This document shows positions 1,165 to 59,753 of a DNA stretch of 64,000 bases, piece after piece; position 1 is the first letter of the stretch, and each line of letters begins with the position of its first letter. The stretch covers positions 372,001 to 436,000 of the forward strand of contig JANJGN010000071.1 of NCBI GenBank assembly GCA_026770705.1, written 5' to 3'. The notes under the pieces were generated by a model. That model was given only the letters and a program-made list of their open reading frames with translations. It was not told the origin of the DNA and ran no database searches. This DNA is from Isurus oxyrinchus. Lineage: Eukaryota. The translations under genes were made by a program, and so were the position numbers.

Positions 1165-1249
1165 AGGGAGCAGCACAGGAAGAGGTCATTCAGCCCAAGC
1201 AGAGCGTGTGGGCAGTTCCTCCCCAGGCGAGCAGTCGGACAGGTCCTGG
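1165..1249 (+). other. Gene A 85-nt upstream (putative first/5'UTR) exon
   Basis: Conserved block ending TCCTGG|GTAAGT about 450 nt upstream of the leader ATG in every gene copy. Confidence 0.6.
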
Positions 1250-1699
1250 GTAAGTAACGGAACGATTGGAATTCACTTCCACGACCAACACTGTCCTTTG
1301 TTGATGTTGTGACTTTATAAAGACAGATTCCAATGATTGATGCCTTTGAAAGATTTTTACTGATTATTGAATTCTGGGTGTGAGACTCAAGTCTGTTGTA
1401 CAGAACATCTTTCTAGCTCAAGGGATGAGGGAACTGCAGAGACATGAGCTTTGGGATGTCCTGAGATAGTGAAAGGTGCTATAGAAATGCAAATCAATCA
1501 TTGTTTGTCTTACTTAAAGACTTGTAACTCTCTGCAGAGCACCTATCATCCCACAGAGAATCAAATTAGTCTGTGAAGACATTGTCTAAAAGCAGTTCTG
1601 ATCTCTCGAGAGCTGTCGGACAAGAGGTGAGGTCTCATTAACTCCTTTCTCTTTCACAGCTTGAGAGTGAGAAGTGGATGGAATATCTGGGAGTGGACG

Positions 1700-1739
1700 A
1701 TGGTCAGGAAATCTTACTTCCTCCTGTCACTTCTCCAAG
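1700..1739 (+). pseudogene. Gene A signal peptide exon (MVRKSYFLLSLLQ)
   Basis: ATG, hydrophobic leader, phase-1 donor G|GTAAT; five paralogous copies. Confidence 0.85.
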
Positions 1740-2441
1740 GTAATATCATCATCAGCTCGGACAGATTTATGGTTAATATTCTTTGTAAAAGATCATTCTT
1801 ATCTCTTTATCTCTGTAACCTCCTGCAACTCACCCAAACAACTTCCCAGATCTCTGTGTTACTCCAATTCCGGCCTCTTGACCATCCCCCGATTCCCATC
1901 ACTCCAATACTGGCGGCCGGGCCTTCAGCTGCCTGGGGCCTGAGCTCTGGAATTCACTCCCTAAACCTCGGGATGGAGGAGCTCAGAGGGTTTCATTTTA
2001 CTGAGAATCACCACGACCACATCACAGCTGCAGTGAGAATAGACAGAGAGTCCAGCCCTCACACTTCCTGCACAGTTTCACCATAGCAACCACAATATGG
2101 AAATTTAAAAATACTGAAAGTTAAACTGAAGCTCAAACCAGTCAGTGTAGAGAGATGAGATGTTTACACAGTTTCCCTGTGTGTCTTGTAGACACTGTGT
2201 TGGGTGGAAGACTGGCTTCACTAAACAGGGTCCTGAGGACCATGAGCCAATGTAGAATGAACTTGTCCACTCCTGTGTCCAGGATTCTCTTCCCTCCGTT
2301 GTGAAACCTTGGGGAATTCCATGTGTGTCCTGTAGATGGTCCACACTGCAGCCACTGTGCCCCAGTGATGGAGAGGGTGGATATCGAGTCTAGTGGATCT
2401 ACAAACCTTCCAGAGTTAAATATTGACATTTCTCTCCATAT

Positions 2442-2816
2442 TTGGACTGTCACAAGATTGAAAAGGCGACACTTCACGAGAGGTGACAGCGCAGGATGGT
2501 TCGTGTGTACAGATTCCATGTCATTACAGTTACTTATCAAATTTCATAGGGAGATCACGTGTCGGAATCTGCTTGAAAGGAATAGATGGGAACCCACAGC
2601 CGAAATGGTCTATAGCCTTTCATTCCGAAGGTCACAGTCACAGGGATCAAAGATTCCACCATCGGACCCGGCTGTCTGGAGACCTGAAAGATGGCGACTG
2701 TTCCCTGATTATAAACAACATCAGACGGGAAGATGCAGGACCTTATTTTTTCAGAATAGAATTTGACAGCAGGAATAGATACAACTATTATCCTGTAACC
2801 CAGCTTCACGTTTCTG
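2442..2816 (+). pseudogene. Gene A Siglec V-set exon, inactivated
   Basis: Acceptor CCCAG mutated to CATAT; in-frame TGA at 2459-2461 replacing Trp; C-strand Trp replaced by Cys; otherwise collinear with other V exons. Confidence 0.9.
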
Positions 2817-3195
2817 GTAAGTGCTGTGTTATAATTACTCAACAATTCACATTCAACACTCAATGGGAGATAACACAAACTGTGACGTTTACATATTAAC
2901 ACAAAACGCAGCTTATTATAACTTGCTATCTGATTCTCAATAACCTGGTGATAGCTTCCAGTTCAGTCCTAAAGCAACCTCTAATACTCACTTTAATATC
3001 AATGATTAAATGTATTCACTGTGTCCATCAATGTTATCAGGTTATCCACTCCCATTAGTCTACCTAATGCTTTTTAAATGTCTAACAATTTGACAAAAGA
3101 AGGATGTGCATTCCTATAGCGTCTTCCCATTAAGTATAAATTGTGGTTCACTTTCTGTTGGTAATCCTGCGAACGGGCTTCTTGATTCCTGCCCT

Positions 3196-3348
3196 GACAT
3201 CTTAATGTCCAAATGAACAGAACAAGTTCCAACAATGAGCTGTGGTTGGTGATTCCTCCCATTACATATCGGGACACTGGAGACTATCAGTGTGTGGCAG
3301 AGAATGAACATGGAGCAGTGGAGGGGTTCATAACCATCACTGTGGAAC
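3196..3348 (+). pseudogene. 5'-truncated Ig exon remnant (gene A)
   Basis: 3' half of the 282-nt Ig exon (MNRTSSNNELWL...TVE|GTGAGT) without its normal acceptor. Confidence 0.85.
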
Positions 3349-5019
3349 GTGAGTGTACACAGACATCAACATCTCTCTCACATTCAAACATTGCACAAAC
3401 ACACACAAATATACAGAACTAAATAGACACATGCAGACACACATGTATGAGCAATTACAAAGACACACTCACGAACAAACACACTAGCACACACTCCCCT
3501 GTGGTTTACCTGAGTACTGCACTGGAGAGTTGGCCTGGATTCTGGGATTTGTGTTCCCAATCATGTTTATGGAAGAATATGGAAATTACAAAGTCTATTA
3601 CAGACACTCAGATGCATAGAGACACTCACAGATACTCTCTGCCTCTCCAACTCTCTCTCTCCCTTTAAGAAGCTTCCTGAAAGCTAACCCTTCGAACAAT
3701 CACCGGCCCCAACTCCTCCTTATCTGATTCTGTGTGATTTTGTTTGTGTATCTGAGAGTAAGAGAGAGGTGGAGAGGTTTAGTTAGAGAATTCCTGCTGG
3801 TGAAAATCTTACATCATTTACTCACCTTTCCAGTGCACATATTTCCCAGTATGTCCAATGCCCCTGTTTATAATGATGACTGCCTATGTAAACGTCACGC
3901 TGTAGTTACAGTCTCCCACCAGTGGTGGCATTGTAGCACTTAATCCTTGTGTTTCCCAGCTTTTCAAGCAACTCCACTTCCCAGTTTGCTACACAAGCTG
4001 TGAGTTCATCAGAATTAAATTATTTCTCAAATGATAGATTTGATAATTCATTTTATTGAAAACTTCCTCAGTGCCTCCCTGAAGGGTTTACACTCTCTGG
4101 GAAGCAGGAATAGGCTGGATGTTGGGGAGTTCATCTTTTCCCAGAGAGTAGGGATCCTTGAGAATGTGCTGTCAGTGGGTGTGGTAGTTCCTGTTTCTCT
4201 GTCGCCTTCAAGAGGGATCTGGAATGGTTACTGACTGGGGGAGAGATCATGGAAGCGGAGAATGATACAGCACAGGAGGAGGCCATTCAGCCCACTGTGC
4301 CTGTGCCAGGTCTTTCAATGTTCTATCCAATCAGATCCACTAACCACCACTCCACTTTACCCCATCTTCCTCCTTCAAGTGTTTATCCAATTTCCCTTTT
4401 GAAAGTTCCTATTGAATCTGCTTCCACTGCCCTTTCAGGCAGCACCTTCCAGATCACAACAACTCGCTCTGTCAAAACAAATTCTCCTCAACTCCCCCTC
4501 CGGTTTGTCAATCTGTGTCCCTCTGGTTACCGACCCTCCTGCCCCTTAAATACATCGATACTGTTCACCTCAACCACTCCCTGTGGGAGTGAGTTCCACA
4601 TTCTCCCCTCTCTCTGGGTAAAGATTGGAACTGTTTATTAAGCGGGGGGTGTAAGTCCGTGGGGGAGTCCATCTCGATTCTGCCCGATTCGCAAACGCGT
4701 CCGAGATGGATTTCCACCCTGCACTAAACGTTTCCAGAATTTTCTACAGCACAATCCTGTACACAGCGATGGAGAGAAACATTGGACAGGGAGTCCAACA
4801 GCACAATGATCCATTCTCACCAATGTTCCACGCTAAGGGGAAAGTTCCGATTGTCCACTCTTAGAGTGTTTACAATGAAAACATTCGTTCCACATTGAAT
4901 CCCAGTGGATGGGTCAATATTACAGCAAATGTTGCAGTGATATGAAGCTTGATTGTTCAGCCAGAGTGAGAGATTGAAAGCGGAGAGTCAGTGATGATTT
5001 CTTTCTGTGTGTTCTCTAG

Positions 5020-7892: not shown

Positions 7893-7977
7893 AGGGAGCA
7901 GCACAGGAAGAGGTCATTCAGCCCAAGCAGAGCGTGTGGGCAGTTCCTCCCCAGGCGAGCAGTCGGACAGGTCCTGG
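7893..7977 (+). other. Gene B 85-nt upstream exon
   Basis: Same conserved block with GTAAGT donor. Confidence 0.6.
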
Positions 7978-31802: not shown

Positions 31803-31887
31803 AGGGAGCAGCACAGGAAGAGGTCATTCAGCCCAAGCAGAGCGTGTGGGCAGTTCCTCCCCAGGCGAGCAGTCGGACAGGTCCTGG
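31803..31887 (+). other. Gene D 85-nt upstream exon
   Basis: Conserved block; upstream ETS site (31748) and AP-1 TGACTCA (31760). Confidence 0.6.
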
Positions 31888-32320
31888 GTAAGTAACGGAA
31901 CGATTGGAATTCACTTCCACCACCAACACCGTCCTTTGTTGATGTTGTGACTTTATAAAGACAGATTCCAATGATCGATGCCTTTGAAAGATTTCTACTG
32001 ATTATTGAGATCTGGGTGTGAGGCTCAAGTCTGTTGTACAGAACATCTTTCTAGCTCAAGGGACATGAGCTTGGGGACATCCTGAGGTGGTGAAAGCGGC
32101 TATAGAAATGCAAGACCTTCATTGTATTTCTTTCTGAATGCCTTGTAACTCTCTGCAGAGCACCTATCATCCCACAAAGAATCAAATTAGTCTGTGAAGA
32201 TATTGTCGAAAAGCAGTTCTGATCTCTCGAGAGCTGTCAGACAAGAGGTGAAGTCTCATTAACTCCTTTCTCTTTCAGAACTTCAGAGCTAGAAGCTGAG
32301 GAAATATCTGTGAGTGGACA

Positions 32321-32360
32321 ATGATCGGTAAATCATACTTCCTCCTGTCACTTCTCCAAG
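32321..32360 (+). CDS. Gene D signal peptide exon (MIGKSYFLLSLLQ)
   Basis: ATG, phase-1 donor. Confidence 0.85.
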
Positions 32361-35560: not shown

Positions 35561-35791
35561 TGAAAAAATTCTAAACAGAATCCTGAGGACCATGAGCCAA
35601 TGTAGAATGAACTTGTCCACTCCTGCATCCAGGATTCTCTTCCATCCATTGTGAAACCTTGAGGAGTTCCTTGTGTGTCCTGTAGATGGTCCACACTGTA
35701 GCCAATGTGCCCCAGTGATGGAGGGGGTGGATATCAAGTCTAGTGGATCGAAAAAACATCCAGAATTAAGTATTGATATTTCTCTCCACAG

Positions 35792-36157
35792 TTGGACTGT
35801 CACAAGAATGGAAAGGTGACACTCCACGAGAGGTGACAGCGCAGGAATGTTTCTGTGTACAGATTCCATGTCATTACAGTTATCCATCACATTTGGAAAA
35901 GCAACCACGAGTTGGAATCTGGTTTAATAATGAGGAATGGAGAACATCGTCTATAGCCTTTCACTCCAAGGATCACAGTCACGAGTTACCACGGTTCCAC
36001 CATCGGACCCGGCTGTCTGGAGACCTGAAAGATGGTGACTGTTCCCTGATTATAAACAACATCAGACAGGAAGATGCAGGACCTTATTTTTTCAGAATAG
36101 AATTTGACAGCAGAAATAAATACAGCTACTATCCTGTAACCCAGCTTCACGTTTCTG
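35792..36157 (+). CDS. Gene D Siglec V-set exon
   Basis: 366 nt open frame; PYFFRIEFDSRNKYSYY resembles the CD33 F-G strands. Confidence 0.9.
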
Positions 36158-36765: not shown

Positions 36766-37016
36766 ACTCCAATCTCTGGTCTGAGCCTCTTCTCTCATCC
36801 AGTGTTCTCAATTCACATGTCTCGGAGTGAACGTGTATTAAGCTGAGAGACAGAAACACTACTGCCAAAGAGCAAGAAAATCTTTCCTGATCATTGTAAC
36901 CTCTCAGTTCTGATATCATCCTTGTAAAAGTGCTTTCTCTTGTGGGACTGTGATTTCTATTTGAACTGATGCTTCACATTATATTTCTCTAAAAGAATCC
37001 ATTCTCTGTGTGTTAG

Positions 37017-37314
37017 ATTTCACAGATAAACCCACGATATTCCCTGCTGAAATTATCGCAGGAAAGCGCTGTGGATGTAAGCTGCACCTTCAACACAACG
37101 TGCAATGGAACAGCAGCACCTGTCTTAACCTGGGACACTCCCACTGACGTACCTGGATCAGTCTCAAACACTGTAACTCAGCATGGTGTCACTCTGACCC
37201 ATACTTCTGTTCTGACCCTGATCCCATCACTCAAACACCACGGACACACACTCAGCTGCAGAGTGAGATATCCATCTGTTTCATCGGAGCGGACCCTCAT
37301 ACTAACTGTGCAAC
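37017..37314 (+). pseudogene. Gene D C2-set exon with +1 frameshift
   Basis: 298 nt versus 297 in paralogues; AAGCGCTGTG versus AAGCGTGTG/AAGCCTGTG at ~37069. Confidence 0.8.
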
Positions 37315-37533
37315 GTAAGAACGGACACCCTTCATTCTGCATTAGCTAGAAAGCTGTACATAGTACATTGCAAGATCCCACAACTGCATTGTGTTTAGCA
37401 ACAAATCAATAGTCTTTAACTGATACAAATTCACCTCTGACACTGCAGCAATCCCTGAATACTGATTCTCCAACACTGCAGCACTCCCTCAGTACTGAGT
37501 CTTGTTCACAATGAAATCTTTAATTGTTCTTAG

Positions 37534-37626
37534 ATGCACCACAGAATATCTCATTTACTACGCTTGATATGATTAATGTTTCATCGATCAATATAATTGA
37601 GGGGTTCATAACCATCACTGTGGAAT
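37534..37626 (+). CDS. Gene D 93-nt mini-exon (internally deleted Ig exon)
   Basis: APQNISFTTLDMINVSSINIIEG-FITITVE, intact splice sites, phase 1-1. Confidence 0.7.
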
Positions 37627-37799: not shown

Positions 37800-38313
37800 T
37801 GAGTGCGTGCACACACACAGATCCTTATTTTACAGAAACATACACACATAAGCCAGCACACACATACACACACACAAAACATGTGGGTTCCCTCTCCTCT
37901 CCCAGTGCTGCACTGGAGTCTCAGTATCAGCTCCGAATCTGTGTTGAAGGAAGGTAAACTCCAGATCATCAAGACACTGAACTGCATGGAGCAAACTCCT
38001 GAACAGTGAATTGTAGTTTTACCCCTCAGTGCTCCATTGGTCAAATACAATTCATTGCCTTTGAAGCCTTTGCGGACATCCTGAGGATCTGAAAGGGAGT
38101 TTCCTTCATTCTAGATGGACACCTCCACTGGTGGGAGAATGTAACTGCAGTGTGACAGTTTACATAGGCAGTGCCCATTGTAAATGTGAAATAAGTTCTT
38201 ATCCTGAGGGAATGTACCTGGAAATGCATTCAGACATCAGATACAGAGACATGATGCATGGAGTCTTGCTGTGCACTATATTTGCTCATATTAAAATCTT
38301 TCTACGTTTATAG

Positions 38314-38595
38314 ATGCACCACGGAATCTCTCAATTACTTCTCTTGGTGTGATTAACGCTTTATCGATCGATGTAATTGAGGGGAATTCTGCAGTGATAA
38401 TCTGCTCTGTCGAGAGCTTCCCAGCTTCTAACCTGACGTGGCGACATCTTAATGTCCCAATGAACAGAACAAGTTCAAACAATGAGCTGTGGTTGGTGAT
38501 TCCTCACGTTACATCCAGGGACACTGGAGACTATCAGTGTGTGGCAGAGAATGAACATGGAGCAGTGGAGGGGTTCATAACCATCACTGTGGAAC
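38314..38595 (+). CDS. Gene D tandem Ig (C2/I-set) exon 1
   Basis: 282 nt; VIICSVESFPASNLTW...DTGDYQCVAENEHG. Confidence 0.9.
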
Positions 38596-39256
38596 GTAAG
38601 TTACTGCAAACTTCAACATCACTCACACACACACACACACATACACACACGTGCACACACATACTCATAAACATACACACACATTCACTCATGCACAGAA
38701 ATATACACAAAGACACACTCACATATGCGCAGACACATACACACACGCACACACAGACACATGCGTGCATACTCACACAAACACACTCACTTGTGCAGAA
38801 ACACAAACACAAACACATACACACACATGAGTTCCCTCTCCTCTCTCAGTGCCGCACTGGAGTCTTGGTATCAGCACTGATTCTGTGTTGAAGGAATGTA
38901 AACTCCAGATCAGCAAGACCCTGAATTGGATGGAGCAACCTCCTGAACAGAGAATTGTAGACTTACCCCTCAGTGCTCCATCGATCAAATACAATTCATT
39001 GCCTGTAAATCCCTTGGCAAAATCCTGAGGATGTGAAAGTTTCTTTCATTCTAGGTGGACAGCACCTCTACTGGTGGGAGAATGTAACTGTAGTTTGACT
39101 GTTTACATAGGCAGTGCCCATTATAAATTTGACAGTGGAAGTTATATGGAGGGAAGGTACCCGGAATTGCATACAGACATCAGATACAGAGAGATGATGC
39201 GTGGAGTCTTGCTGTAAATTGAGCTTGCTCACATTAAACACTTGATTTGTTTTTAG

Positions 39257-39538
39257 ATTCACCACAGGATCTCTCATTTACTTCGCTTGAAATGATTAAT
39301 GCTTCATCGATCAATATAATTGAGGGGAATTCTGCAGTGATAATCTGCTCTGTCGAGAGCTTCCCAGCTTCTAACCTGACGTGGCGACATCTTAATGTCC
39401 CAATGAACAGAACAAGTTCCAACAATGAGCTGTGGTTGGTGATTCCTCACCTTACATCCAGGGACACTGGAGACTATCAGTGTGTGGCAGAGAATGAACA
39501 TGGAGCAGTGGAGGGATTCATAACCATCACTGTGGAAT
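39257..39538 (+). CDS. Gene D tandem Ig exon 2
   Basis: 282 nt, intact. Confidence 0.9.
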
Positions 39539-40280
39539 GTGAGTGCACACACACATCTACATCACACACACACACTCACACATGCAAAAACACTCATGTG
39601 TAGACACAAACATGCACGTTTACACACAAACATACGTTCAAACACATACACAGAAACACACACAAACTCAACTCACACGTACAATCATTCATGCGCACAC
39701 GTAGACACACGTATACACACACACTCATTCAAGCACAGATGTACACACAAGACCCACATACACACGCGTGCCCACACATGCGCAGACAGACACGCGCATA
39801 CACACAAATACAAACTCACTTGTGCAGAAATACACACACACACACAAGTGTGAGATCCCTCCCCTCTCTCAGTGCTGCACTGGAGTCTCGGTATCAGCTC
39901 TGATTCTGTGTTGAAGGAAGGTAAACTCCAGATCAGCAAGACCCTGAATTGGATGAGCAACTTCCTGAACGGAGAATTGTAGATTTACTCCTCAGTGCTC
40001 CATCAATCAAATACAATTCACGGGCTTTCAATCCCTTGGGGGCATCTTGAGAGTGTTAAAGGATGTTTGTTTCATTCTAGGTGGACAGCAACTCTGTTGG
40101 TGGGAGAATGCAACTGCAGTGTGACAGTTTACATAGGAAGTGCCCATTATAAATGTGACAGTATTTTTTCCTGAGGGAAGGTACCTGGAAATGCATTCCA
40201 ATATCAGATACAGAGAGATGATGCATGGAGTCTTGCTGTGCACTGTGCTTGCTCACATTAAAATCTTTATTTGTTTTTAG

Positions 40281-40562
40281 ATGCTCCACGGAATCTCTCA
40301 GTTACTTCTCTTGATATGATTAACGCTTCATCGATCAATATAATTGAGGGGAATTCTGCAGTGATAATCTGCTCTGTCGAGAGCTTCCCAGCTTCTAACC
40401 TGACGTGGCGACATCTTAATGTCCCAATGAACAGAACAAGTTCCAACAATGAGCTGTGGTTGGTGATTCCTCACGTTACATCCAGGGACACTGGAGACTA
40501 TCAGTGTGTGACAGAGAATGAACATGGAGCAGTGGAGGGATTTATAACCATCTCTGTGGAAC
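40281..40562 (+). CDS. Gene D tandem Ig exon 3
   Basis: 282 nt, intact. Confidence 0.9.
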
Positions 40563-41640: not shown

Positions 41641-41826
41641 ATGTGAATCCTCCTTATAGAAACCTGCATGTACATGGATATTATCAATAAATATTACATA
41701 GATAAATGTTATTTGTATAGACCTTTCATGCATAGACAATATCACTTCACAAGTTCAGAATTACTACATGTACATAGGGAACCATTCTCAAACTGTACCG
41801 GAGTCATTCATTGGCTGATTTTACAG

Positions 41827-41923
41827 GGCGAGATTCCAATGAATGGAAAGCAGGATTGCTTGGAGCTGGAATCTGTTTGAGTGTTGGACTGAGTGGATTC
41901 TTCATCTTCAAGTGTGTGAGAAA
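41827..41923 (+). CDS. Gene D transmembrane exon
   Basis: RDSNEWKAGLLGAGICLSVGLSGFFIFKCVRK|GTAAGT; 97-nt paralogue of 20528-20624. Confidence 0.85.
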
Positions 41924-42631
41924 GTAAGTGCGAAGGTTTAATTGGTTGTCTTTGAACATGTTTTCTTCAACCTTCTCTCCTTTTCGAAAGAACTTGCGTT
42001 TCTATAGCAACTTTCACAACCCAAAACCCTTCACAGCCCCTGAAGAGCTTTGATGTTCACTCACTGTTTACCATCTCATCCAACACTCACTGTTTCACAA
42101 CTCAGTCCTGTAACTGGCAGTGTTGACCTGGACCATAAAATACATTGTGACTTCCTGATGATGCGAAATGTGCTATATAAATGAAAACCTTTCTTTTGTT
42201 AGTGAATGCAATCTCTTTCCATTTTCCCTGTCGCATTCACTCTCTCTCTTATCTCCACTAATGCACGCCTTCTCATTCTCTCTCTCATTCACTCTCTCTC
42301 CAATCTCCACTAATGCTCTCCTTCTCATTCTCTCTCTCTCGTCCTCTTACACGTTGTTCAGTCTCTCACATTTTTAAGGAGCGCTGAGCAACATCTGCTC
42401 CTTCAGAAGATCCACCTCAACACCTGGAATGAGCAGTGAAATGAAACTTGCTCAACGACTGCTCAGCTTTACACAGGAATCACGTCACAGAGTCAGGACA
42501 CAAAGGGTTAACGGTTTGCTTACAACACAACACTAAGACCCTACGTTTCAATGAAAGGGTTTTCACAATTGTTCCCCAATTCATGATTTGACTCACAGAG
42601 ACACATCAACCCTTTCTCATTAAATACACAG

Positions 42632-42716
42632 AGGGAGCAGCACAGGAAGAGGTCATTCAGCCCAAGCAGAGCGTGTGGGCAGTTCCTCCCCAGGCGAGCA
42701 GTCGGACAGGTCCTGG
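42632..42716 (+). CDS. Gene D putative cytoplasmic exon 1 (copy of the 85-nt upstream exon)
   Basis: CAG acceptor, GTAAGT donor, phase 2-0, open frame GSSTGRGHSAQAERVGSSSPGEQSDRSW. Confidence 0.55.
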
Positions 42717-43226
42717 GTAAGTAACGGAACGATTGGAATTCACTTCCACCACCAACACCGTCCTTTGTTGATGTTGTGACTTTATAAAGACAGATTCCAA
42801 TGATTGATGCCTTTGAAAGATTTCTACTGATTATTGAGATCAGGGTGTGAGGCTCAAGTCTGTTGTACAGAACATCTTTCTGGTTAAATTATGCAGACAG
42901 GTTACACACAGTCTACGATTATATCCCCTCAGGTCTAGAAGATTAAGGAGTGATCTATCTGAGGGGTTCAAACTGATTAAACACTCAATAGGTCGATAGA
43001 GAGAAGCTATTCCCTCGGGTGGGGGTGGGTGGTGGGGGTCGGGTGGAGTCCAGAACAAGGGGGCCGGAACTTCAGATTGGAGCCAGGCCGTTCAGGGGTG
43101 ATGTCAGGAAGCACTTCTTCACACAAAGGGGAGTGGAAATCTGGAACTCTCTCCCCAATAATCAAACCCAACACCGAATACACATCATGTTGATTGTCAC
43201 TCTGTCCATTTCCATCTCTATTACAG

Positions 43227-43331
43227 AAGAGAGGCGAGGGGAAAGCAGGAATCAAATCGAACCACCGTGTTGATGAATATCGAGGTCCTGTTTATGAAAA
43301 CTGTGAGCGTGGTTGGGCTTTGAGGAATCAG
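43227..43331 (+). CDS. Gene D putative cytoplasmic exon 2 (VYENC)
   Basis: TTACAG|KRGEGKAGIKSNHRVDEYRGPVYENCERGWALRNQ|GTGAGT, phase 0-0. Confidence 0.55.
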
Positions 43332-43463
43332 GTGAGTCACACACCACAGGATCCCCAGCCTCTCAGCTGCTCCAGTAGCCTGGTTATTGATATGGCTGCT
43401 CCAGTCCTGTATCTGCAATGTTTTATACAGTCACTCCCAAACCCAACCAAATTCACACCCAAC

Positions 43464-43698
43464 ACCGTTCAGAATCAATAATCAAACCCCGTTCAGTATC
43501 AATAATCAAACCCCGTTCAGAATCAATAATCAAACCCCGTTCAGAATCAATAATCAAACCCTGTTCAGTATCAATAATCAAACCCTCTTCAGAATCAATA
43601 ATCAAACCCCGTTCAGTATCAATAATCAAACCCCGTTCAGAATCAATAATCAAACCCCGTTCAGTATCAATAATCAAACCCTGTTCAGTATCAATAAT
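43464..43698. repeat. 24-bp minisatellite (CCGTTCAGAATCAATAATCAAACC), ~10 copies
   Basis: Direct inspection. Confidence 0.95.
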
Positions 43699-43796
43699 TA
43701 ATGTATCTATTATGGGTGGAATTTTCGATTTGGATCAATAATACTAAACACTGATCACTCTGATTGTCACTCTGATCATTTCTGTTTCTATTACAG

Positions 43797-43913
43797 AAGA
43801 AAGATGAGAAGGATCTGGAAATGAAATCTAACCGCGGAGTCAGTCCTGATACAGATGATGATCTTTACGCAAACTGTGAATTTGCCAAGGATTCTGTTTA
43901 TGGGAATTTATAA
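43797..43913 (+). CDS. Gene D terminal cytoplasmic exon (DLYANC, ITIM SVYGNL)
   Basis: TTACAG|KKDEKDLEMKSNRGVSPDTDDDLYANCEFAKDSVYGNL*. Confidence 0.7.
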   Translation, partial: KKDEKDLEMKSNRGVSPDTDDDLYANCEFAKDSVYGNL

Positions 43914-44969
43914 ACTGAGCAAGAATGAGACACACACAGTGTGGGGAGAATACAGAATGGGAGAATCATTCAAAACTCCAATTTACCTTCCTAATATCCA
44001 CAGGAACTCATTCCCAGGAAATAGATTTAAACCTCTTGTTACAATCTGATGGAATTTCTTCGGAATGATCTATCCAGGATGATTGTCTGTGGGTTTCAAT
44101 TCGAACATCCTCCTTCAGAATTGTCCCTCACTGTTGGAAACATCCTTCTCTCCATTCTGATTGTAAATGTCTTTAGATATCGTTCGATGATGTACCAGGA
44201 CAGAACGGACAAATTCAATCCCGTGTCCGTGATTATGAGTTAATTTTCATTCTGTTATTCACCTTTCTGTCTGTCAGTGTTTACAGAATATTCATCAGCC
44301 AGTGCAGACTTCAGGAAATGCAGGATCGGTGGATAATTGGAGCAGAGGAGATTGGTAAAATTTACTCACCGTTTTGTAGTCAAATGTATTTTCAGAAATA
44401 TATTTGGATTTTACACTTCATCGTTAAACAGCGAAACAAACAAGAATCTGGGAAACAGGGAAACAATTTGATTGGAGATTTGAGAAATTCTCTGCAGCTC
44501 AGAGGATAACAGATGTGCTACAGTGCCACCACTGGTGGCAGGACATCATTTCAGCGTGACATGTTTACATTCATGTTGCCAATGAACATTGAAAACAATG
44601 ATGTGAAAAATTGTTTGCAGGTTTATCTTCTTCAATATGTCATGGATGGATGAGACAGCTTTGATAACAGAATGAGATAGAGCTGCAATAAACCACCATT
44701 TTAGTCTTTCACACTTGGAGAGTACAATTAGCATCCATCCTGAAGGCTGAGTGGATGGGTGGACTGTGCGATGTGTTACAGATTACAGAGACCAACATCC
44801 TTGATCCTGGTTCTGCTCTGTGTTTGATGAGATACTTGATTCAAAGATTGGGAAAATAAATAATCCTCCTGCATTGATCTGTAACTGGTCATTTTCTCTG
44901 TTAATGAGGTGAGGACAGATTTGGGTTCGAGGTCCCAAATCAGACACATGCTTTGACTGCCCATTGACT

Positions 44970-47530
44970 CGGAACAGGAGGTGGCCATTCAGCCCCCTCG
45001 AGCCTGCTACACAGGAACAAGAGGGCACCTGAAATAAAAACAGAAAATGCTGGAGAAACTGAATAGGTCTGGCAGCATCTGTGCAGAGATAAACAGAAAT
45101 AACATTTTGAGTCTGTATGACCCTTCTTCAGAGTCTCAAAGCAAAAACTCTGTTTCTCTCTCCACAGCTGCTGCCAGACCTGCTGAGTTAATGCAGCATT
45201 TTCTGTTTTTATTTCAGATTTACAGCATCTGCAGTATTTATTTTTAATGAGAGGAGGACATTCAGCCCCTCGAGCCTGTTACACAGGAACAGGAGGAGGC
45301 CCATTCTGTCCCCTTGAGCCTGTTACACAGGAACAGGAGGAGGCCCATTCTGTCCCCTTGAACCTGTTACACAGGAACAGGAGGAGGCCCATTCACCCTC
45401 CTTGAGCCTGTTACACAGGAACAGGAGGAGGCCCATTCTGTCCGCTTGAGCCTGTTACACAGGTACAGGAGACCCATTCAGCCTCCACAAGCTTGTTACA
45501 CAGGAACAATTGGGGTTCCATTCAGCCGCTCAAGCCTGTTCCACAAGAACAGGAGCAAAAACAAAAATAGCTGGAAAAACTCAGCAGGTCTGACAGGATC
45601 TGCGGAGAGGAACACACTTGACGTTTTGGGTCTGTATGACTCTTCATCAGAACTAAGGGAATCGAGAAATGAGGTGACGTTTTAGCTGGTAGAGGGGGTG
45701 GGGCAGGTAGAGCTGGATTGTGGGCCAGTGATAGGTGGAGGTAAAGAAGAGGTTGCCAAAGATGTGATAGACAAAAGGACAAAGGGGTGTTGACGGTGGT
45801 GATATTATCTGAGGAATGTGCTAATGGGGACATTAAGGGTAGAAAGCAGGACGAGCAAGAGACAGATAGTCCTAGTGGGGGTGGGGTGGGGGGAAAAGAT
45901 TGAAATAGGCTAAAAGGTAGAGATACAACAACAGATGTGAAACATTTAAAAATAATGGAAATAGGTGGGAAAAGAAAAATATATCAATAAAATAAATATT
46001 AAAAATGATAAATTATTGGAAAAAGGGAGATTGGAAAGGGGGTGGGGATGGAGGAGAGAGTTCATGATCTGAAAGTGTTGAACTCAATATTCAGTCCGGA
46101 AGTCTGTAAAGTGCCAGGTCGGAAGATGAGGTGCTGTTCCTCCAGTTTGTGTTGGGCTTCACTGGAACAATGCAGCAGGCCAAGGACGGACATGTGGGCA
46201 TGAGAGCAGGGTGGGGTGTTAAAATGGCAAGCGACAGGGAGGTCTGGGTCATGCTTGTGGACAGACCGAAGGTGTTCATCAGAGCGATCACCCAGTCTGT
46301 GTTTGGTCTGTCCCATGTAGAGGAGACCACATTGGGAGCAGTGAATGCAGTAGATTAAATTGAGGGAAGTGCAAGTGAAATGCTGCTTCCAATGATGCTC
46401 CTAATGTACTCGAGCCTGGTACACAGGAACTGGGGAAGGCCAATTCAGCCCCTTTAGCCTTTTACACAGGAACAGGAGGAGGCCCACTCAGCCCCATGAG
46501 CCTGGTACACAGTGAGAGAAGGAGGCCATTCAGCCCCCCTGAGCCTGTTGCACAGGAAAAGGAGACCCATTCAGCCCCTCGAGCTTGTTACACAGGAACA
46601 GGAGGAGGTCCTATCAGCCCCTCAAGCCTGTTACACAGGAACAGGAGGAGGCCCATTCAGCCCCCTCAAGCCTGTTACACAGGAACAGGAAGAGGCCCAT
46701 TCAGCCCCCTCGAGCCTGTTACACAGGAACAAGAGGAGGCCCACTCAGCCCCATGAGCCTGGTACACAGAGAGAAGGAGGCCATTCAGCCCCCCTGAGCC
46801 TGTTGCACAGGAAAAGGAGACCCATTCAGCCCCTCGAGCTTGTTACACAGGAACAGGAGGAGGCCCATTCAGCCCCTCGAGCCTGTTACACAGGAACAGG
46901 AGGAGGTCCATTCAGCCCCTCGAGCCTGTTACACAGGAACAGGAGGAAGTCATTCAGCCCCCTTGAACCTATAACACAGGAACAGGAGGAGGCCCACTCA
47001 GCCCCCTCAAGACAGTTACACAGGAACAGGAGAAGGCCATTCAGCCCTCTCAAGCCTGTTACACAGGAACAGGGGGAGGCCCATTCAGCCTCCTCAGACA
47101 TGTTACATAGGAACAGTAAGAGGACATTCAATTCCTCAACCCTCTTTACTGGAGCAGTAAACACATTCAGCCTCCTTGAGCCTGTTACACAAGAACAGGA
47201 GGAGGTCCATTCAGCCCCTCAAGTCAGTGACATAGGAACAGGAGAAGTCTCATTCAGCCACATAAGCATCTTATATAAGAACATGAGGGGGCCCAAACAG
47301 CCCCTCAAGCCTCTTACACAAGAAGAGGAGGAGGAGGTTTATTCAGTCCCTCGAGGCTGTTACACAGGGACAGGAGGAGGCCCATTCAGCCACATGAGCC
47401 TGTTACACAGGGACTGGAGGAGGCCCATTCAGCTCCCTAATATATGTTACTCTTGAACACGAGGAGGTGCATACAGTCCCTCAAGCCTGTTACACTGGAA
47501 CAGGAGGAGGCCCAGTCAACCCCTCGAGCC
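44970..47530. repeat. ~43-bp minisatellite array interrupted by Penelope-type inserts
   Basis: Same unit as 1-1010. Confidence 0.9.
45556..46390 (-). mobile_element. Penelope-like element 3' fragment (GIY-YIG endonuclease plus terminal repeat)
   Basis: CSQCGLLYMGQTKHRLGDRSDEHLRSV..PVACHFN..LEEQHLIF..GLN; degenerate hammerhead core at ~45620-45652 on minus strand. Confidence 0.85.
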
Positions 47531-47695
47531 TCTTGCATGTGAACAGTCGATGGCCCTTCAACCACATTCTTGGTACGCAAAGGGTTAACAGTTTTCTAAC
47601 TGTGTGAGGCAAAGAATTGCTTTCTAACTTGGTACCAAGCACTTCCTCATTTTGTCTCACAGTGACACATCCACCCTTTCTTATTAAACACACAG

Positions 47696-47780
47696 AGGGA
47701 GCAGCACAGGAAGAGGTCATTCTGCCCAAGCAGAGCATGTGGGCAGTTCCTCCCCAGGCGAGCAGTCGGACAGGTCCTGG
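47696..47780 (+). other. Gene E 85-nt upstream exon
   Basis: Conserved block, ETS site at 47641. Confidence 0.6.
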
Positions 47781-48230
47781 GTAAGTAACGGAACGATTGG
47801 AATTCACTTCCACCACCAACACCGTCCTTTGTTGATGTTGTGACTTTATAAAGACAGATTCCAATGATTGATGCCTTTGAAAGATTTCTACTGATTATTG
47901 AGATCTGGGTGTGAGGCTCAAGTCTGTTGTACAGAACATCTTTCTAGCTCAAGGGATGAGGGAAGAGCAGGGACATGAGCTTTGGGACATCCTGAGGTGG
48001 TGAAAGGTGCTATGGAAATGCAAGTCCTTCAATGTTTTTCTTTCTTAAAGCCTTGTAACTCTCTGCAGAGCACCTATCATCCCACAGAGAATCAAATTAG
48101 TCTGTGAAGACATTGTGTAAAAGCAGTTCTGATCTCTCGAGAGCTGTCGGACAAGAGGTGAGGTCTCATTAACTCCTGTCTCTTTCACAGCTTGAGAGTG
48201 AGAAGTGGATGGAATATCTGGGAGTGGACG

Positions 48231-48270
48231 ATGGTCGGGAAATCTTACTTTCTCTTGTCACTTCTCCAAG
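48231..48270 (+). CDS. Gene E signal peptide exon (MVGKSYFLLSLLQ)
   Basis: ACGATGG Kozak context, phase-1 donor. Confidence 0.88.
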
Positions 48271-48973
48271 GTAATATCATCATCAGCTCGGATAGATTTA
48301 TGTTTAACAATCTTTGTAAAAGATCATTCATATCTCTTTATCTCTGTAACCTCCTGCAACTCACCCAAACAACTTCCCAGATCTCTGTGTTACACCAATT
48401 CCGGCCTCTTGACCATCCCCCGATACCCATCACTCCAATACTGGCGGCCGGGCCTTCAGCTGCCTGGGGCCTGAGCTCTGGAATTCACTCCCTAAACCTC
48501 GGGGATGGAGGAGATCAGAGGGTTTCATTTTACTGAGAATCACCACGACCACATCACAGCTGCAGTCAGAATAGACAGAGAGTCCAGCCCTCACACTTCC
48601 TGCACAGTTTCACCATAGCAACCACAATATGGAAATTTAAAAATACTGAAAGTTAAACTGAAGCTCAAACCAGTCAGTGTAGAGAGATGAGATGTTTACA
48701 CAGTTTCCCTGTGTGTCTTGTAGACACTGTGTTGGGTGGAAGACTGGCTTCACTAAACAGGGTCCTGAGGACCATGAGCCAATGTAGAATGAACTTGTCC
48801 ACTCCTATGTCCAGGATTCTCTTCCCTCCATTGTGAAACCTTGGGGAATTCCTTGTGTGTCCTGTAGATGGTCCACACTGCAGCCACTGTGCCCCAGTGA
48901 TGGAGGGGGTGGATATCGAGTCTAGTGGATCTACAAACTATCCAGAGTTAAATATTGATATTTCTCTCCCCAG

Positions 48974-49342
48974 TTGGACTGTCACAAGAGTGGAAAGGTG
49001 ACACTCCACGAGAGGTTGCAGCACAGGAAGGCTCGTGTGTACAGATTCCATGTCATTACAGTTATCCATCGTGTCTGGAAAACCAACCGCGAGGTGGAGT
49101 CTGGTTTAATAATGAGAAACAGATTCCCTGGGCTCCCATTGCCTTTCACTCCAAGGATCACAGTCACGAGTTACCACGGTTCCACCATCGGACCCGGCTG
49201 TCTGGAGACCTGAAAGATGGCGACTGTTCCCTGATTATAAACAACATCAGACGGGAAGATGCAGGACCTTATTTTTTCAGAATAGAATTTGACAATGGTC
49301 CGAGCCATAACTATTACCCTGTAACCCAGCTTCTCGTTTCTG
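48974..49342 (+). CDS. Gene E Siglec V-set exon
   Basis: 369 nt, intact, essential Arg present. Confidence 0.92.
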
Positions 49343-50201
49343 GTAAGTGCTGTGTTATAATTACTCAACAATTCACATTCAACACTCAATGGGAAATAAC
49401 ACAAACTGTGATGTTTACATATTAACACAAAACACAGCTTATTATAACACACTGTCTGATTCTCAATAACCTGGTAATGGCTTCCAGTTCAGTCCTAAAG
49501 CAACCTCTAATACTCAGTTTAATATCAATGATGAAAAGCATTAACTGTATTATCAGGTTATCCACTCCCATCAATCTCTCCTGTCCTGTTTAAAAGTCTG
49601 ACTTATCGATCAAAGAAAGATGTGCATTTCTGCAGCGCAATTTACCACCTCAGGAGGATCCAAATCCCTTCACAGCCATTGAAATTATTCCTGAATTGTA
49701 GTCACAGATGTAAAACACAGCAGGCAGTTTGTGCACAGCAAGATCCAACAAACCACAAGGTGCTAAATCACCTAGATCACTGAGGAAATGAAAAGCCAGT
49801 GAACAGAAACCTCTGGTCTGATGAAGAGTCATACGGACTCGAAACTTTAACCCTGGCTTCCTCTCCACTGATACTGTCAGACCTGCTGAGTCTTTCCAGC
49901 AATTTTTGTTTTTGTTTCAGATTTCCAGCATCCGCAGTATTCTGCTTTTAACTCCAATCTCTGGTCTGAGCCTCTTCTCTCATCCAGTGTTCTCAATTTA
50001 CATGTCTCGGAGTGAACGTGTATTAAGCTGAGAGACAGAAACACCAAAGTCTCAAAGCAGGAAATTCTCTCCTGATCATTGTAACCTCTCAGATCTGATA
50101 TCATCCTTGTAAAAGTGCTTTCTCTTGTGGGACTGTGATTTCTATTTGAACTGATGCTTCACGTTATATTTCTCTAAAAGGATCCATTTTCTGTCTGTTA
50201 G

Positions 50202-50498
50202 ATTTCACAGATAAACCCACGATTTTCCCTGCTGAAATTATTGCAGGAAAGCCTGTGGATGTAAGCTGCACCTTCAACACAATGTGCAATGGAACAGCAG
50301 CACCTGTCTTAACCTGGGACACTCCCACTGACGTACCTGGATCAGTCTCAAACACTGTAACTCAGCATGGTGTCACTCTGACCTATACTTCTGTTCTGAC
50401 CCTGACCCCATCACTCAAACACCACGGACACACTCTCAGCTGCAGAGTGAGATATCCATCTGTTTCATCGGAGCGGACCCTCGTACTAACTGTGCAAG
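50202..50498 (+). CDS. Gene E C2-set exon
   Basis: 297 nt intact, G|GTTAGT donor. Confidence 0.9.
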
Positions 50499-50821
50499 GT
50501 TAGTATGGACACCCTTCATTCTACATCAGCACTCCCTCAGCGCTGACCCTCTGACAGTGCAGCTCATTCTCAGTATCCACATTCTCAGACCTCTCAAAGT
50601 GCTTCACAGTCGATAGAAGTTAATTGATCTTTATTTGATTATTGCTGAATGAAGAGACAAGCTGTCTAAAGTTTACATCTCGCACACACCATTCTCCATG
50701 GCAACACCTCCACCTATCAGAGACCACTTGCCAACCAATCAGCACTCTCCTCCCATTAAGTATAAATTGTTGTTCACTTTCTGTTGGTAATCCTGCGAAC
50801 GTGCTTCTTGATTCCTGCCCT

Positions 50822-50974
50822 GACATCTTAATGTCCAAATGAATAGAACAAGTTCCAACAATGAGCTGTGGTTGGTGATTCCTCACGTTACATCCAGGGA
50901 CACTGGAGACTATCAGTGTGTGGCAGAAAATGAACATGGAGCAGTGGAGGGGTTCATAACCGTCACTGTGGAAC
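50822..50974 (+). pseudogene. 5'-truncated Ig exon remnant (gene E intron)
   Basis: Same breakpoint as 3196-3348. Confidence 0.8.
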
Positions 50975-52646
50975 GTGAGTGTACACAGACTTCAACATCT
51001 GTCTCAGATTCAAACATTACACAAACACCCTCAAATATACAGAACTAAATAGACACGTGCAGACACACATGTATGAGCAATTACAAAGACACACTCACGA
51101 ACAAACACACTAGCACACACTCCCCTGTGGTTTACCTGAGTACTGCACTGGAGAGTTGGCCAGGATTCTGGGATTTGTGTTCCCATTCATATTTATGGAA
51201 GAATATGGAAATTGCAAAGTCTATTACAGACACTCAGATGCATAGAGGCACTCACAGATACTCTCTGCCTCTCCAACTCTCTCTCTCCCTTTAAGAAGCT
51301 TCCTGAAAGCTAACCCTTCGAACAATCACCGGTCCCAACTCCTCCTTATCTGATTCTGTGTGATTTTGTTTGTGTATCTGAGAGTAAGAGAGAGGTGGAG
51401 AGGTTTAGTTAGAGAATTCCTGCTGGTGAAAAGCTTACATCATTTACTCACCTTTCCAGTGCACATATTTCCCAGTATGTCCAATGCCCCTGTTTATAAT
51501 GATGACTGCCTATGTAAACGTCATGCTGTAGTTACATTCTCCCACCAGTGGTGGCATTGTAGCACTTAATCCTTGTGTTTCCCAGCTTTTCAAGCAACTC
51601 CACTTCCCAGTTTGCTACACAAGCTGTGAGTTCATCAGAATTAAATTATTTCTCAAATGATAGATTTGATAATTCATTTTATTGAAAACTTCCTCAGTGC
51701 CTCCTTGAAGGGTTCACACTCTCTGGGAAGCAGGAATAGGCTGGATGTTGGGGAGGTCATCTTTTCCCAGAGAGTAGGGATCCTTGAGAATGTGCTGTCA
51801 GTGGGTGTGGTAGTTCCTGTTTCTCTGTCGCCTTCAAGAGGGATCTGGAGTGGTTACTGACTGGGGGAGAGATCATGGAAGCGGAGAATGATACAGCACA
51901 GGAGGAGGCCATTCAGCCCATTGTGCCTGTGCCAGGTCTTTCAATGTTCTATCCAATCAGATCCACTAACCACCACTCCACTTTGCCACCATCATCCTCC
52001 TTCAAGTGTTTATCCAATTTCCCTTTTGAAAGTTCCTATTGAATCTGCTTCCAGCGCCCTTTCAGGCAGCACCTTCCAGATCACAACAACTCGCTCTGTC
52101 AAAACAAATTCTCCTCATCTCCCCCTCCAGTTGGTCAATTTGTGTCCCTCTGGTTACCGACCCTCCTGCCCCTTAAATACATCGATACTGTTCACTTGAA
52201 CCACTCCCTGTGGGAGCGAGTTCCACATTCTCCCCTCTCTCTGGGTAAAGATTGGAACTGTTTATTAAGCGGGTGGTGTAAGTCCGTGGGGGAGTCCATC
52301 TCGATCCTGCCCGATTCGCACACACGTCCGAGATGGATTTCCACCCTGCACTAAACGTTTCCAGAATTTTCTACAGCACAATCCTGTACACAGCGATGGA
52401 GAGAAACATTGGACAGGGAGTCCAACAGCACAATGATCCATTCTCACCAATGTTCCACTCTAAGGGGAAAGTTCCGATTGTCCACTCTTAGAGTGTTTCC
52501 AATGAAAACATTCATTCCACATTGAATCCCAGTGGATGGGTCAATATTCCAGCAAATGTTGCAGTGATATGAAGCTTGATTGTTCAGCCAGAGTGAGAGA
52601 TTGAAAGCGGAGAGTCAGTGATGATTTCTTTCTGTGTGTTCTCTAG

Positions 52647-56481: not shown

Positions 56482-56566
56482 AGGGAGCAGCACAGGAAAA
56501 GGTCATTCAGCCCAAGCAGAGTGTGTGGGCAGTTCCTCCCCAGGCGAGCAGTCGGACAGGTCCTGG
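56482..56566 (+). other. Gene F 85-nt upstream exon
   Basis: Conserved block, ETS site at 56427. Confidence 0.6.
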
Positions 56567-59441: not shown

Positions 59442-59660
59442 GTAAGAATGGACACCCTTCATTCTACATTAGCTAGAAAGCTCTACATAGTACATTGCAA
59501 GATCCCACAACTGCATTGTGTTTAGCAACAAATCAATAGTCTTTAACTGATACAAATTCACCTCTGACACTGCAGCAGTCCCTGAATACTGATTCTCCAA
59601 CACTGCAGCACTCCCTCAGTACTGAGTCTTGTTCACAATGAAATCTTTAATTGTTCTTAG

Positions 59661-59753
59661 ATGCACCACAGAATCTCTCATTTACTTCGCTTGATATGAT
59701 TAATGCTTCATCGATCAATATAATTGAGGGGTTCATAACCATCACTGTGGAAT
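59661..59753 (+). CDS. Gene F 93-nt mini-exon
   Basis: APQNLSFTSLDMINASSINIIEG-FITITVE, splice sites intact. Confidence 0.7.

Follow-up and report, generated by a model that had tools for sequence, protein, structure and literature searches.

An 85-nt exon sequence ahead of leader exons and behind a transmembrane exon in a Siglec-like gene cluster of the shark Isurus oxyrinchus

A stretch of 64,000 nt from Isurus oxyrinchus (contig JANJGN010000071.1, positions 372,001 to 436,000; the whole stretch is referred to as the window) contains six near-identical copies of an 85-nt sequence. Five lie ahead of leader exons and one lies between the transmembrane (TM) exon and the tyrosine-motif exons of a single gene, gene D. 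This raises the question of whether one exon sequence can be both the start of a gene and part of its protein-coding tail, how old the two uses are, what keeps the copies alike and which use came first.

The gene cluster and its six copies of one block

The cluster was a tandem array of Ig-superfamily receptor genes, all on the + strand (as are all features below), with six V-set, five leader, two TM and many C2 exons in the window. The window also held N gaps and many near-identical repeats. Judging from the sequence, these are putative sialic-acid-receptor (Siglec-like) genes. The V exon of gene D had Siglec-5 as its best PDB match (E 3e-15), with the F-strand Arg and the YFFR stretch aligned to it, and Siglecs were the best 17 of 33 PDB matches. 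Gene D possessed V-set, C2, TM and tail exons. Its leader exon (32279..32360, ATG at 32321) was followed by the Siglec-like V-set exon (35791..36156, approximate ends), a first C2 exon (37016..37315) and three further C2 exons (38313-38594, 39256-39537 and 40280-40561). The TM exon (41827..41923) ended in phase 2, as placed by RNA-run joints and frame, and its peptide was identical to the TM in Carcharodon carcharias proteins. Cytoplasmic exon 2 (43227..43331, phase 0-0, one YxN motif) was a paralog of the last coding exon (43797..43913, to the stop), which had two YxN tyrosines and an ITIM-like SxYxxL at the C terminus. These two tyrosine exons were tandem duplicates, acceptor regions included (p=0.001), and the first of them was missing from several relatives (P0008, P0011, P0013 and P0016).

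In this assembly the first C2 exon of gene D had one extra base near 37069 compared with three paralogs, a 1-nt frameshift with which it reads into a stop, whereas relatives were full length. The extra base may be an assembly error or a null allele, or the C2 exon may be skipped by necessity. Internally deleted C2 mini-exons of about 30 codons with splice-like ends were observed in gene D (37533-37622) and in the gene behind 56482 (59660-59749). The sister genes at 1165-3350 and 47696-50976 had a V and a partial C2 exon and no TM exon, with a stop at the V-exon frame start in the former. They are probably pseudogenes or secreted forms.

The homogenised tail block of gene D (42587..42881, 295 bp) consisted of 45 nt of upstream sequence, the 85-nt exon (42632..42716) and 165 nt of intron. 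Five other copies of this 295-311-bp block matched it at 94.9-98.0%. Their exons were located at 1165..1249, 7893..7977, 31803..31887 (gene D's own 5′ copy, a probable first or 5′UTR exon), 47696..47780 (the 5′ copy of the gene next downstream of D) and 56482..56566. The exon is present twice in gene D, at 31803 and 42632, 10.8 kb apart. Exon 42632 did not differ from copies 1165, 7893 and 31803 (0/85 nt) and differed from 47696 and 56482 at 2/85 nt. The initial annotation had reported a block about 450 nt ahead of every leader ATG and a sixth copy between the TM and tyrosine exons of gene D with no leader behind it. Both statements held, the leader ATGs (1700, 8428, 32321, 48231 and 57017) standing 434-451 nt past the five upstream exon copies. 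It had also noted that the tail copy lacks an ETS site, and we found the same: an upstream PU.1/ETS-like core at -55 was present in four of the five upstream copies, was reduced to TTCC in copy 1165 and was absent at 42.6 kb. A search of 42300-43300 against Rfam gave no match at E<=1, and thus no known RNA there. Directly upstream of copies 1165 and 47696 there was a 43-44-bp tandem array (arrays in 1-1030, 45251-45555 and 46409-47531), and upstream of 7893 and 56482 a 33-bp array.

Coding use behind the transmembrane exon

Exon 42632 had CAG/GTAAGT ends and a length of 3n+1. Entered from the phase-2 end of the TM exon it contained no stop, and it ran in frame into 43227-43331 and 43797-43913, as a phase 2-to-0 linker should and as initially annotated. 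By a simple donor plus pyrimidine score it ranked first among the 78 stop-free 3n+1 AG..GT candidates in the intron. Contigs of four runs from four studies (X1, X5, X6 and X7), whose RNA status was guessed, were aligned to 41700-44300. As these are contigs aligned at 88% likeness, the joints may stem from paralogs or related species, and they are evidence at the level of the family. Seven of the 11 joint rows were non-canonical and were set aside, six of them lying near a repeat at 43.0-43.15 kb. The joint 41923-42632 (GT..AG) was found in three of the four runs (X5, X6 and X7). The joint 42716-43227 was found in X6, with matching loose ends in X1, and 43331-43797 in X6 and X7. Splicing of the TM exon near 42379, which the initial annotation had named as the outcome that would overturn its reading, was not represented among the 11 joint rows. 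One X5 contig was unspliced across the acceptor into non-D sequence. It fits a 5′ copy transcribed from upstream, or DNA, and was given no weight.

RefSeq models of Carcharodon and Cetorhinus showed the same exon chain, and further Carcharodon loci had it with 0-3 residues changed. A homologous peptide (9-26/29 residues identical, 15-29 residues long) stood directly after the TM in all 11 aligned tails, which are predicted proteins whose exon borders are not visible. These were 11 of 16 matches, two isoforms and three read-through models having been omitted. The peptide was present in seven species of three orders (Carcharodon, Cetorhinus, Mustelus, Rhincodon, Stegostoma, Chiloscyllium and Hemiscyllium), and the three orders split about 200 million years ago. 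As the peptide recurs in annotated proteins from seven galeomorph species, we regard the coding use as old and as shared by the three orders. Sizeable deletions mark the linker in carpet sharks and Mustelus (15-29 residues). Because such deletions are tolerated, keeping the frame seems more important than which residues are encoded. With contig joints and the proteins of seven sharks in agreement, the proposal that 42632 is a coding cytoplasmic exon of gene D, linking the TM to 43227/43797, stands, and we hold it with high confidence. In contigs of related alleles or paralogs the exon is spliced in behind the TM exon, where it encodes a 29-residue Ser/Gly-rich linker and sets the frame.

The computed frame gives the exon a second effect. 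When it is included, the tail after the TM exon has 102 residues and four tyrosines. When it is skipped, the frame shifts and the tail has 32 residues and no tyrosine. Because the stop then falls 8 nt ahead of the last junction, the skipped transcript would escape decay under the 50-nt rule. The skip joint 41923-43227 was found in X1 alone (1/4 runs), in one contig, and may come from a paralog without the exon.

Probable use ahead of the leader and likeness of the copies

At the start of each leader exon, about 42 nt ahead of the ATG, lies a pyrimidine-rich acceptor, which requires an upstream donor. The GTAAGT of the block was the top-scoring upstream donor for all five leaders, tied once. 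The acceptor was proper in four of the five upstream copies. At copy 1165 AAT replaces the CAG, so that the acceptor AG is lost and the donor kept, as a first exon may have it. The exon was joined to the leader exon in RefSeq models P0001, P0003 and P0005. In P0003 and P0005 the order was TM, exon, second exon copy, leader. These read-through models may be artefacts of the near-identical copies; they also hint that the 5′ copies can be internal exons as well. In a length-limited set of 161 candidates, seven proteins were read-through models in which the exon was read in a different frame. No carpet-shark or ray protein was among these seven, which is weak as evidence of absence given the length limit. 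The annotation model P0136 (Scyliorhinus canicula) continued past the other tail type to take in the leader of the next gene, and in P0006 (Carcharodon) two exon copies in succession preceded a V exon. In clusters like these, read-through splicing or faulty annotation appears to be frequent.

The first seven residues of the partial catshark model P0172 (Scyliorhinus torazame) lay ahead of the leader and matched the exon end in register, four of them being identical and three one base off (chance about 0.0004-0.001). On these seven residues, the sequence suggests that the 5′ copy is older than the lamniform-carcharhiniform split. On this indirect evidence, use of the 5′ copies as a first exon is likely, if held less firmly than the coding use. 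The exon ahead of the leader would be first and non-coding, would lie in a PU.1/ETS-type promoter and would provide the leader exon with its donor. Late in intron 1, behind all five 5′ copies (1610, 8338, 32231, 48141 and 56927), there was a 13-nt sequence resembling the exon 3′ end, and it was not significant on shuffling (p=0.02-0.27). An out-of-frame upstream ATG was present in the leader exons behind 1165, 7893 and 47696 and missing from those with ATGs at 32321 and 57017. Models from Rhincodon and Stegostoma had their upstream ATG in frame. Exon copy 47696 itself contains an ATG.

Divergence among the five upstream copies was uneven along their length. The mean was highest in the upstream flank (36%), fell to 1.9% in the exon and 2.7% over the 165 nt that follow, and rose again to 7% across the remainder of intron 1 and 12% in the leader exon. 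Between the tail copy and the upstream copies it was 0.9% in the exon and 2.2% in the intron part. The flanks paired 1165 with 47696 and 7893 with 56482, and 1165 and 47696 were sisters by leader also. Inside the block, 47696 was nearest to its neighbours 42632 and 31803, and in the 165-nt intron part it differed by 1 nt from the tail copy and by 6 nt from 1165. Divergence in exon plus intron tracked physical distance (rho 0.66, 6/720 permutations, for six copies of one haplotype), whereas flank divergence did not rise with it (rho -0.34 and -0.41). The distance test was weak when restricted to the intron part of the five 5′ copies (11/120). Tract similarity was thus discordant with flank ancestry, as under concerted evolution, in these six copies of one haplotype. 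Since likeness within the block follows physical distance and not flank ancestry, gene conversion is indicated. Some homogenisation is needed if both uses are old, because the exon shows 0/85 differences.

Near-identity is best explained by gene conversion, which accounts for it better than a single recent co-option would; strong selection could alternatively keep the block alike. We consider it probable that conversion keeps the copies alike. It would act in short tracts between neighbouring copies, and both uses would reach back at least to early galeomorph sharks. The tail copies of other lamniforms were up to 6 residues off the 5′ type, as expected if some escape conversion. A stronger form, in which conversion has locked promoter exon and tail exon together since early galeomorphs, with transcription-factor, splicing and coding constraints all on one 85-nt sequence, is put forward tentatively.

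Origin of the tail copy and relation to known systems

A paralogous TM exon at 20528-20624 was identical to that of gene D at 73/97 nt. It was followed by an 82-nt phase 2-to-0 linker (21601-21682) in which no likeness to the 85-nt exon could be detected, and the tail ended in TEYAQI. At the DNA level there was no significant homology between the exon and this linker (p=0.84; 0.26 with flanks), between the last exon of gene D and the ITIM exon of the paralog (p=0.07), or between the intron behind the tail block and intron 1 (p=0.57 and 0.15). Descent of the tail exons from decayed leaders was considered and dropped (cytoplasmic exons against the leader exon, p=0.62 and 0.07). The region of this second TM type (20528-26110) contained duplicated tail exons, with linkers at 21601 and 24514 and TEYAQI ends in about 23100-23346 and 25870-26110. 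It lay far behind a V-C2 unit (16841-18224) that is without a leader or block of its own.

Stegostoma and two rays, Pristis and Hemitrygon, also had a related TM followed by another linker and a TEYAxI end. Behind a different TM, the D-type last exon recurred in Hemitrygon, Hypanus, Rhinoraja, Scyliorhinus and Chiloscyllium (13-37 bits, p=0.003). The profile search had 150 of 10,978 matches listed, mostly Ig domains, and 10 named, with thin sampling of rays and squalomorphs. In P0029, P0031, P0051 and P0070 the TM lies beyond the 110 residues scored for linker likeness, and the TM matches were found separately. From these comparisons the gene D tail looks like a chimera, with the TM of one subfamily and the last exon of another, linked by promoter-exon-like sequence. 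The intron upstream of the tail copy (42472..42570, -160 to -62) had weak, older homology to the upstream flanks of four of the five 5′ copies (p=0.002 each) and none to the 31803 flank. This weak homology to promoter flanks therefore marks an old duplication.

Because the tail looks chimeric, capture of a downstream gene's first exon is favoured. A downstream sister gene would have collapsed, losing its leader, Ig and TM exons. The TM exon of the upstream gene would then have captured the first exon of the collapsed gene and, via that exon, its tyrosine exons. The direction from promoter exon to tail, by such a capture, is somewhat favoured over the alternatives. To the combined account, with two jobs for the exon, old uses, conversion and an origin by capture, we give a probability of roughly 0.55.

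The reverse direction, which we think unlikely though worth serious weighing, would start from an ancient cytoplasmic linker. A piece of tail (intron-exon-intron) would have been copied to a place ahead of a leader, have turned into promoter and first exon there by acquiring an ETS site, and have spread through the family, with conversion since. Coding homologues do span three shark orders and the 5′ evidence two; however, protein searches are blind to 5′ copies, and the narrower 5′ range is hence a sampling effect. The upstream copies keep an intact acceptor in four of five cases and a 3n+1 stop-free length, neither of which a first exon needs, and the part of PMC11797052 consulted reports hybrid exons arising from internal exons that gained promoter elements. 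Two linkers behind other TMs were faintly like the exon (P0165, p=0.02; P0106, p=0.086), but among 15 tails tested this likeness is not significant. The large linker deletions in carpet sharks and Mustelus also speak against an origin in the tail, which would require in addition a separate TM swap and a family-wide promoter replacement.

If the tail copy were the sole exon, the other five would be promoter-proximal enhancers or passive leftovers without regular splicing to the leader. The alignment, which spanned 41700-44300 with the leaders outside it and had 264 loose-end rows beyond those listed, displayed no joint from exon to leader, and several of the genes behind the upstream copies look incomplete or broken (the V-frame stop and partial C2 at 1165, the missing TM at 47696). 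Yet the leader acceptors need a donor, for which the block is the best candidate in all five cases, and three RefSeq models and one catshark model make the join; we consider a tail-only exon improbable. It is more improbable still, by a wide margin, that the tail copy was inserted recently, or arose through mis-assembly, and fits the frame by chance. The 98% identity to copy 31803 and the gaps and near-identical repeats of the window would suit such an origin, but splice joints came from three studies, the homologous peptide is present in seven species, more Carcharodon loci carry the chain nearly unchanged, and the flanks are unique, with homology that is old and not recent.

One exon sequence seems to be both gene start and protein-coding linker in the same gene, apparently for very long and tied by conversion. 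On the stronger form put forward above, if it is true, the direct repeats that bracket the leader-Ig-TM cassette would let unequal crossover duplicate, delete or swap ectodomain cassettes with the junction still working. Were the TM exon spliced to the first exon of the gene next in line, the tail would be switched off as well. The arrangement is a possible route to new signalling tails in tandem immune-receptor clusters. It is also a warning that short-read annotation of such loci will lead to false or ambiguous read-through models.

Members of the Siglec family (Siglec-5, Siglec-8, CD33, MAG and sialoadhesin) have the order V, C2, TM and tyrosine tail. The exons of gene D stand in this order, with the frameshift near 37069 in the first C2 exon. 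CD33-related inhibitory Siglecs have a membrane-proximal ITIM and a distal ITIM-like TxYxxI. The neighbouring TM paralogs carried such a pair of ITIM and TxYxxI, whereas the tail of gene D had YxN motifs and one C-terminal ITIM-like motif. D-type tails had YxN and no TxYxxI, and the C-terminal ITIM-like motif was found in 3/11 aligned tails and also in gene D. Hybrid first-internal exons have reportedly been treated by Fiszbein et al. (10.1101/2021.05.27.446076). In such exons, where promoter elements coincide with a 3′ splice site, a single sequence is used both to begin transcripts and internally, and evolution in both directions is reported for human, according to the portion of the source available (Mick et al. 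2024, PMC11797052). The shark 85-nt exon may be alike in having a first use besides its internal use. As described in that portion (PMC11797052), hybrid exons have one genomic copy with two uses, whereas the shark has two near-identical copies, one non-coding and one coding. The RNA-run joints show the internal use, and this use and the probable first use map to different copies.

Conversion has made the Siglec paralogs SIGLEC11 and SIGLEC16 alike, in tracts that take in upstream sequence and 5′UTR, and the shark block appears similar in this (PMC5701461, in part). Conversion there joins equivalent positions (upstream region and ectodomain exons), whereas in the shark it apparently joins a promoter exon and a cytoplasmic coding exon (PMC5701461, same part). 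In CEACAM1, exon 7 is a short exon behind the TM exon whose absence strips all tail tyrosine sites, as computed for gene D (PMC11646291, in part). The sections of PMC11646291 consulted mention no second exon 7 copy at the 5′ end, such as gene D has. According to those sections (PMC11646291), regulated skipping is established in CEACAM1, whereas skipping in gene D is represented by one contig. Searches of the open-access literature, with subscription papers and supplements outside their scope, turned up no account of how shark Siglec-like genes are built or of the present arrangement. We regard the arrangement as a variant, apparently undescribed, of hybrid exons, Siglec conversion and the CEACAM1-type tail switch, each of which is already known.
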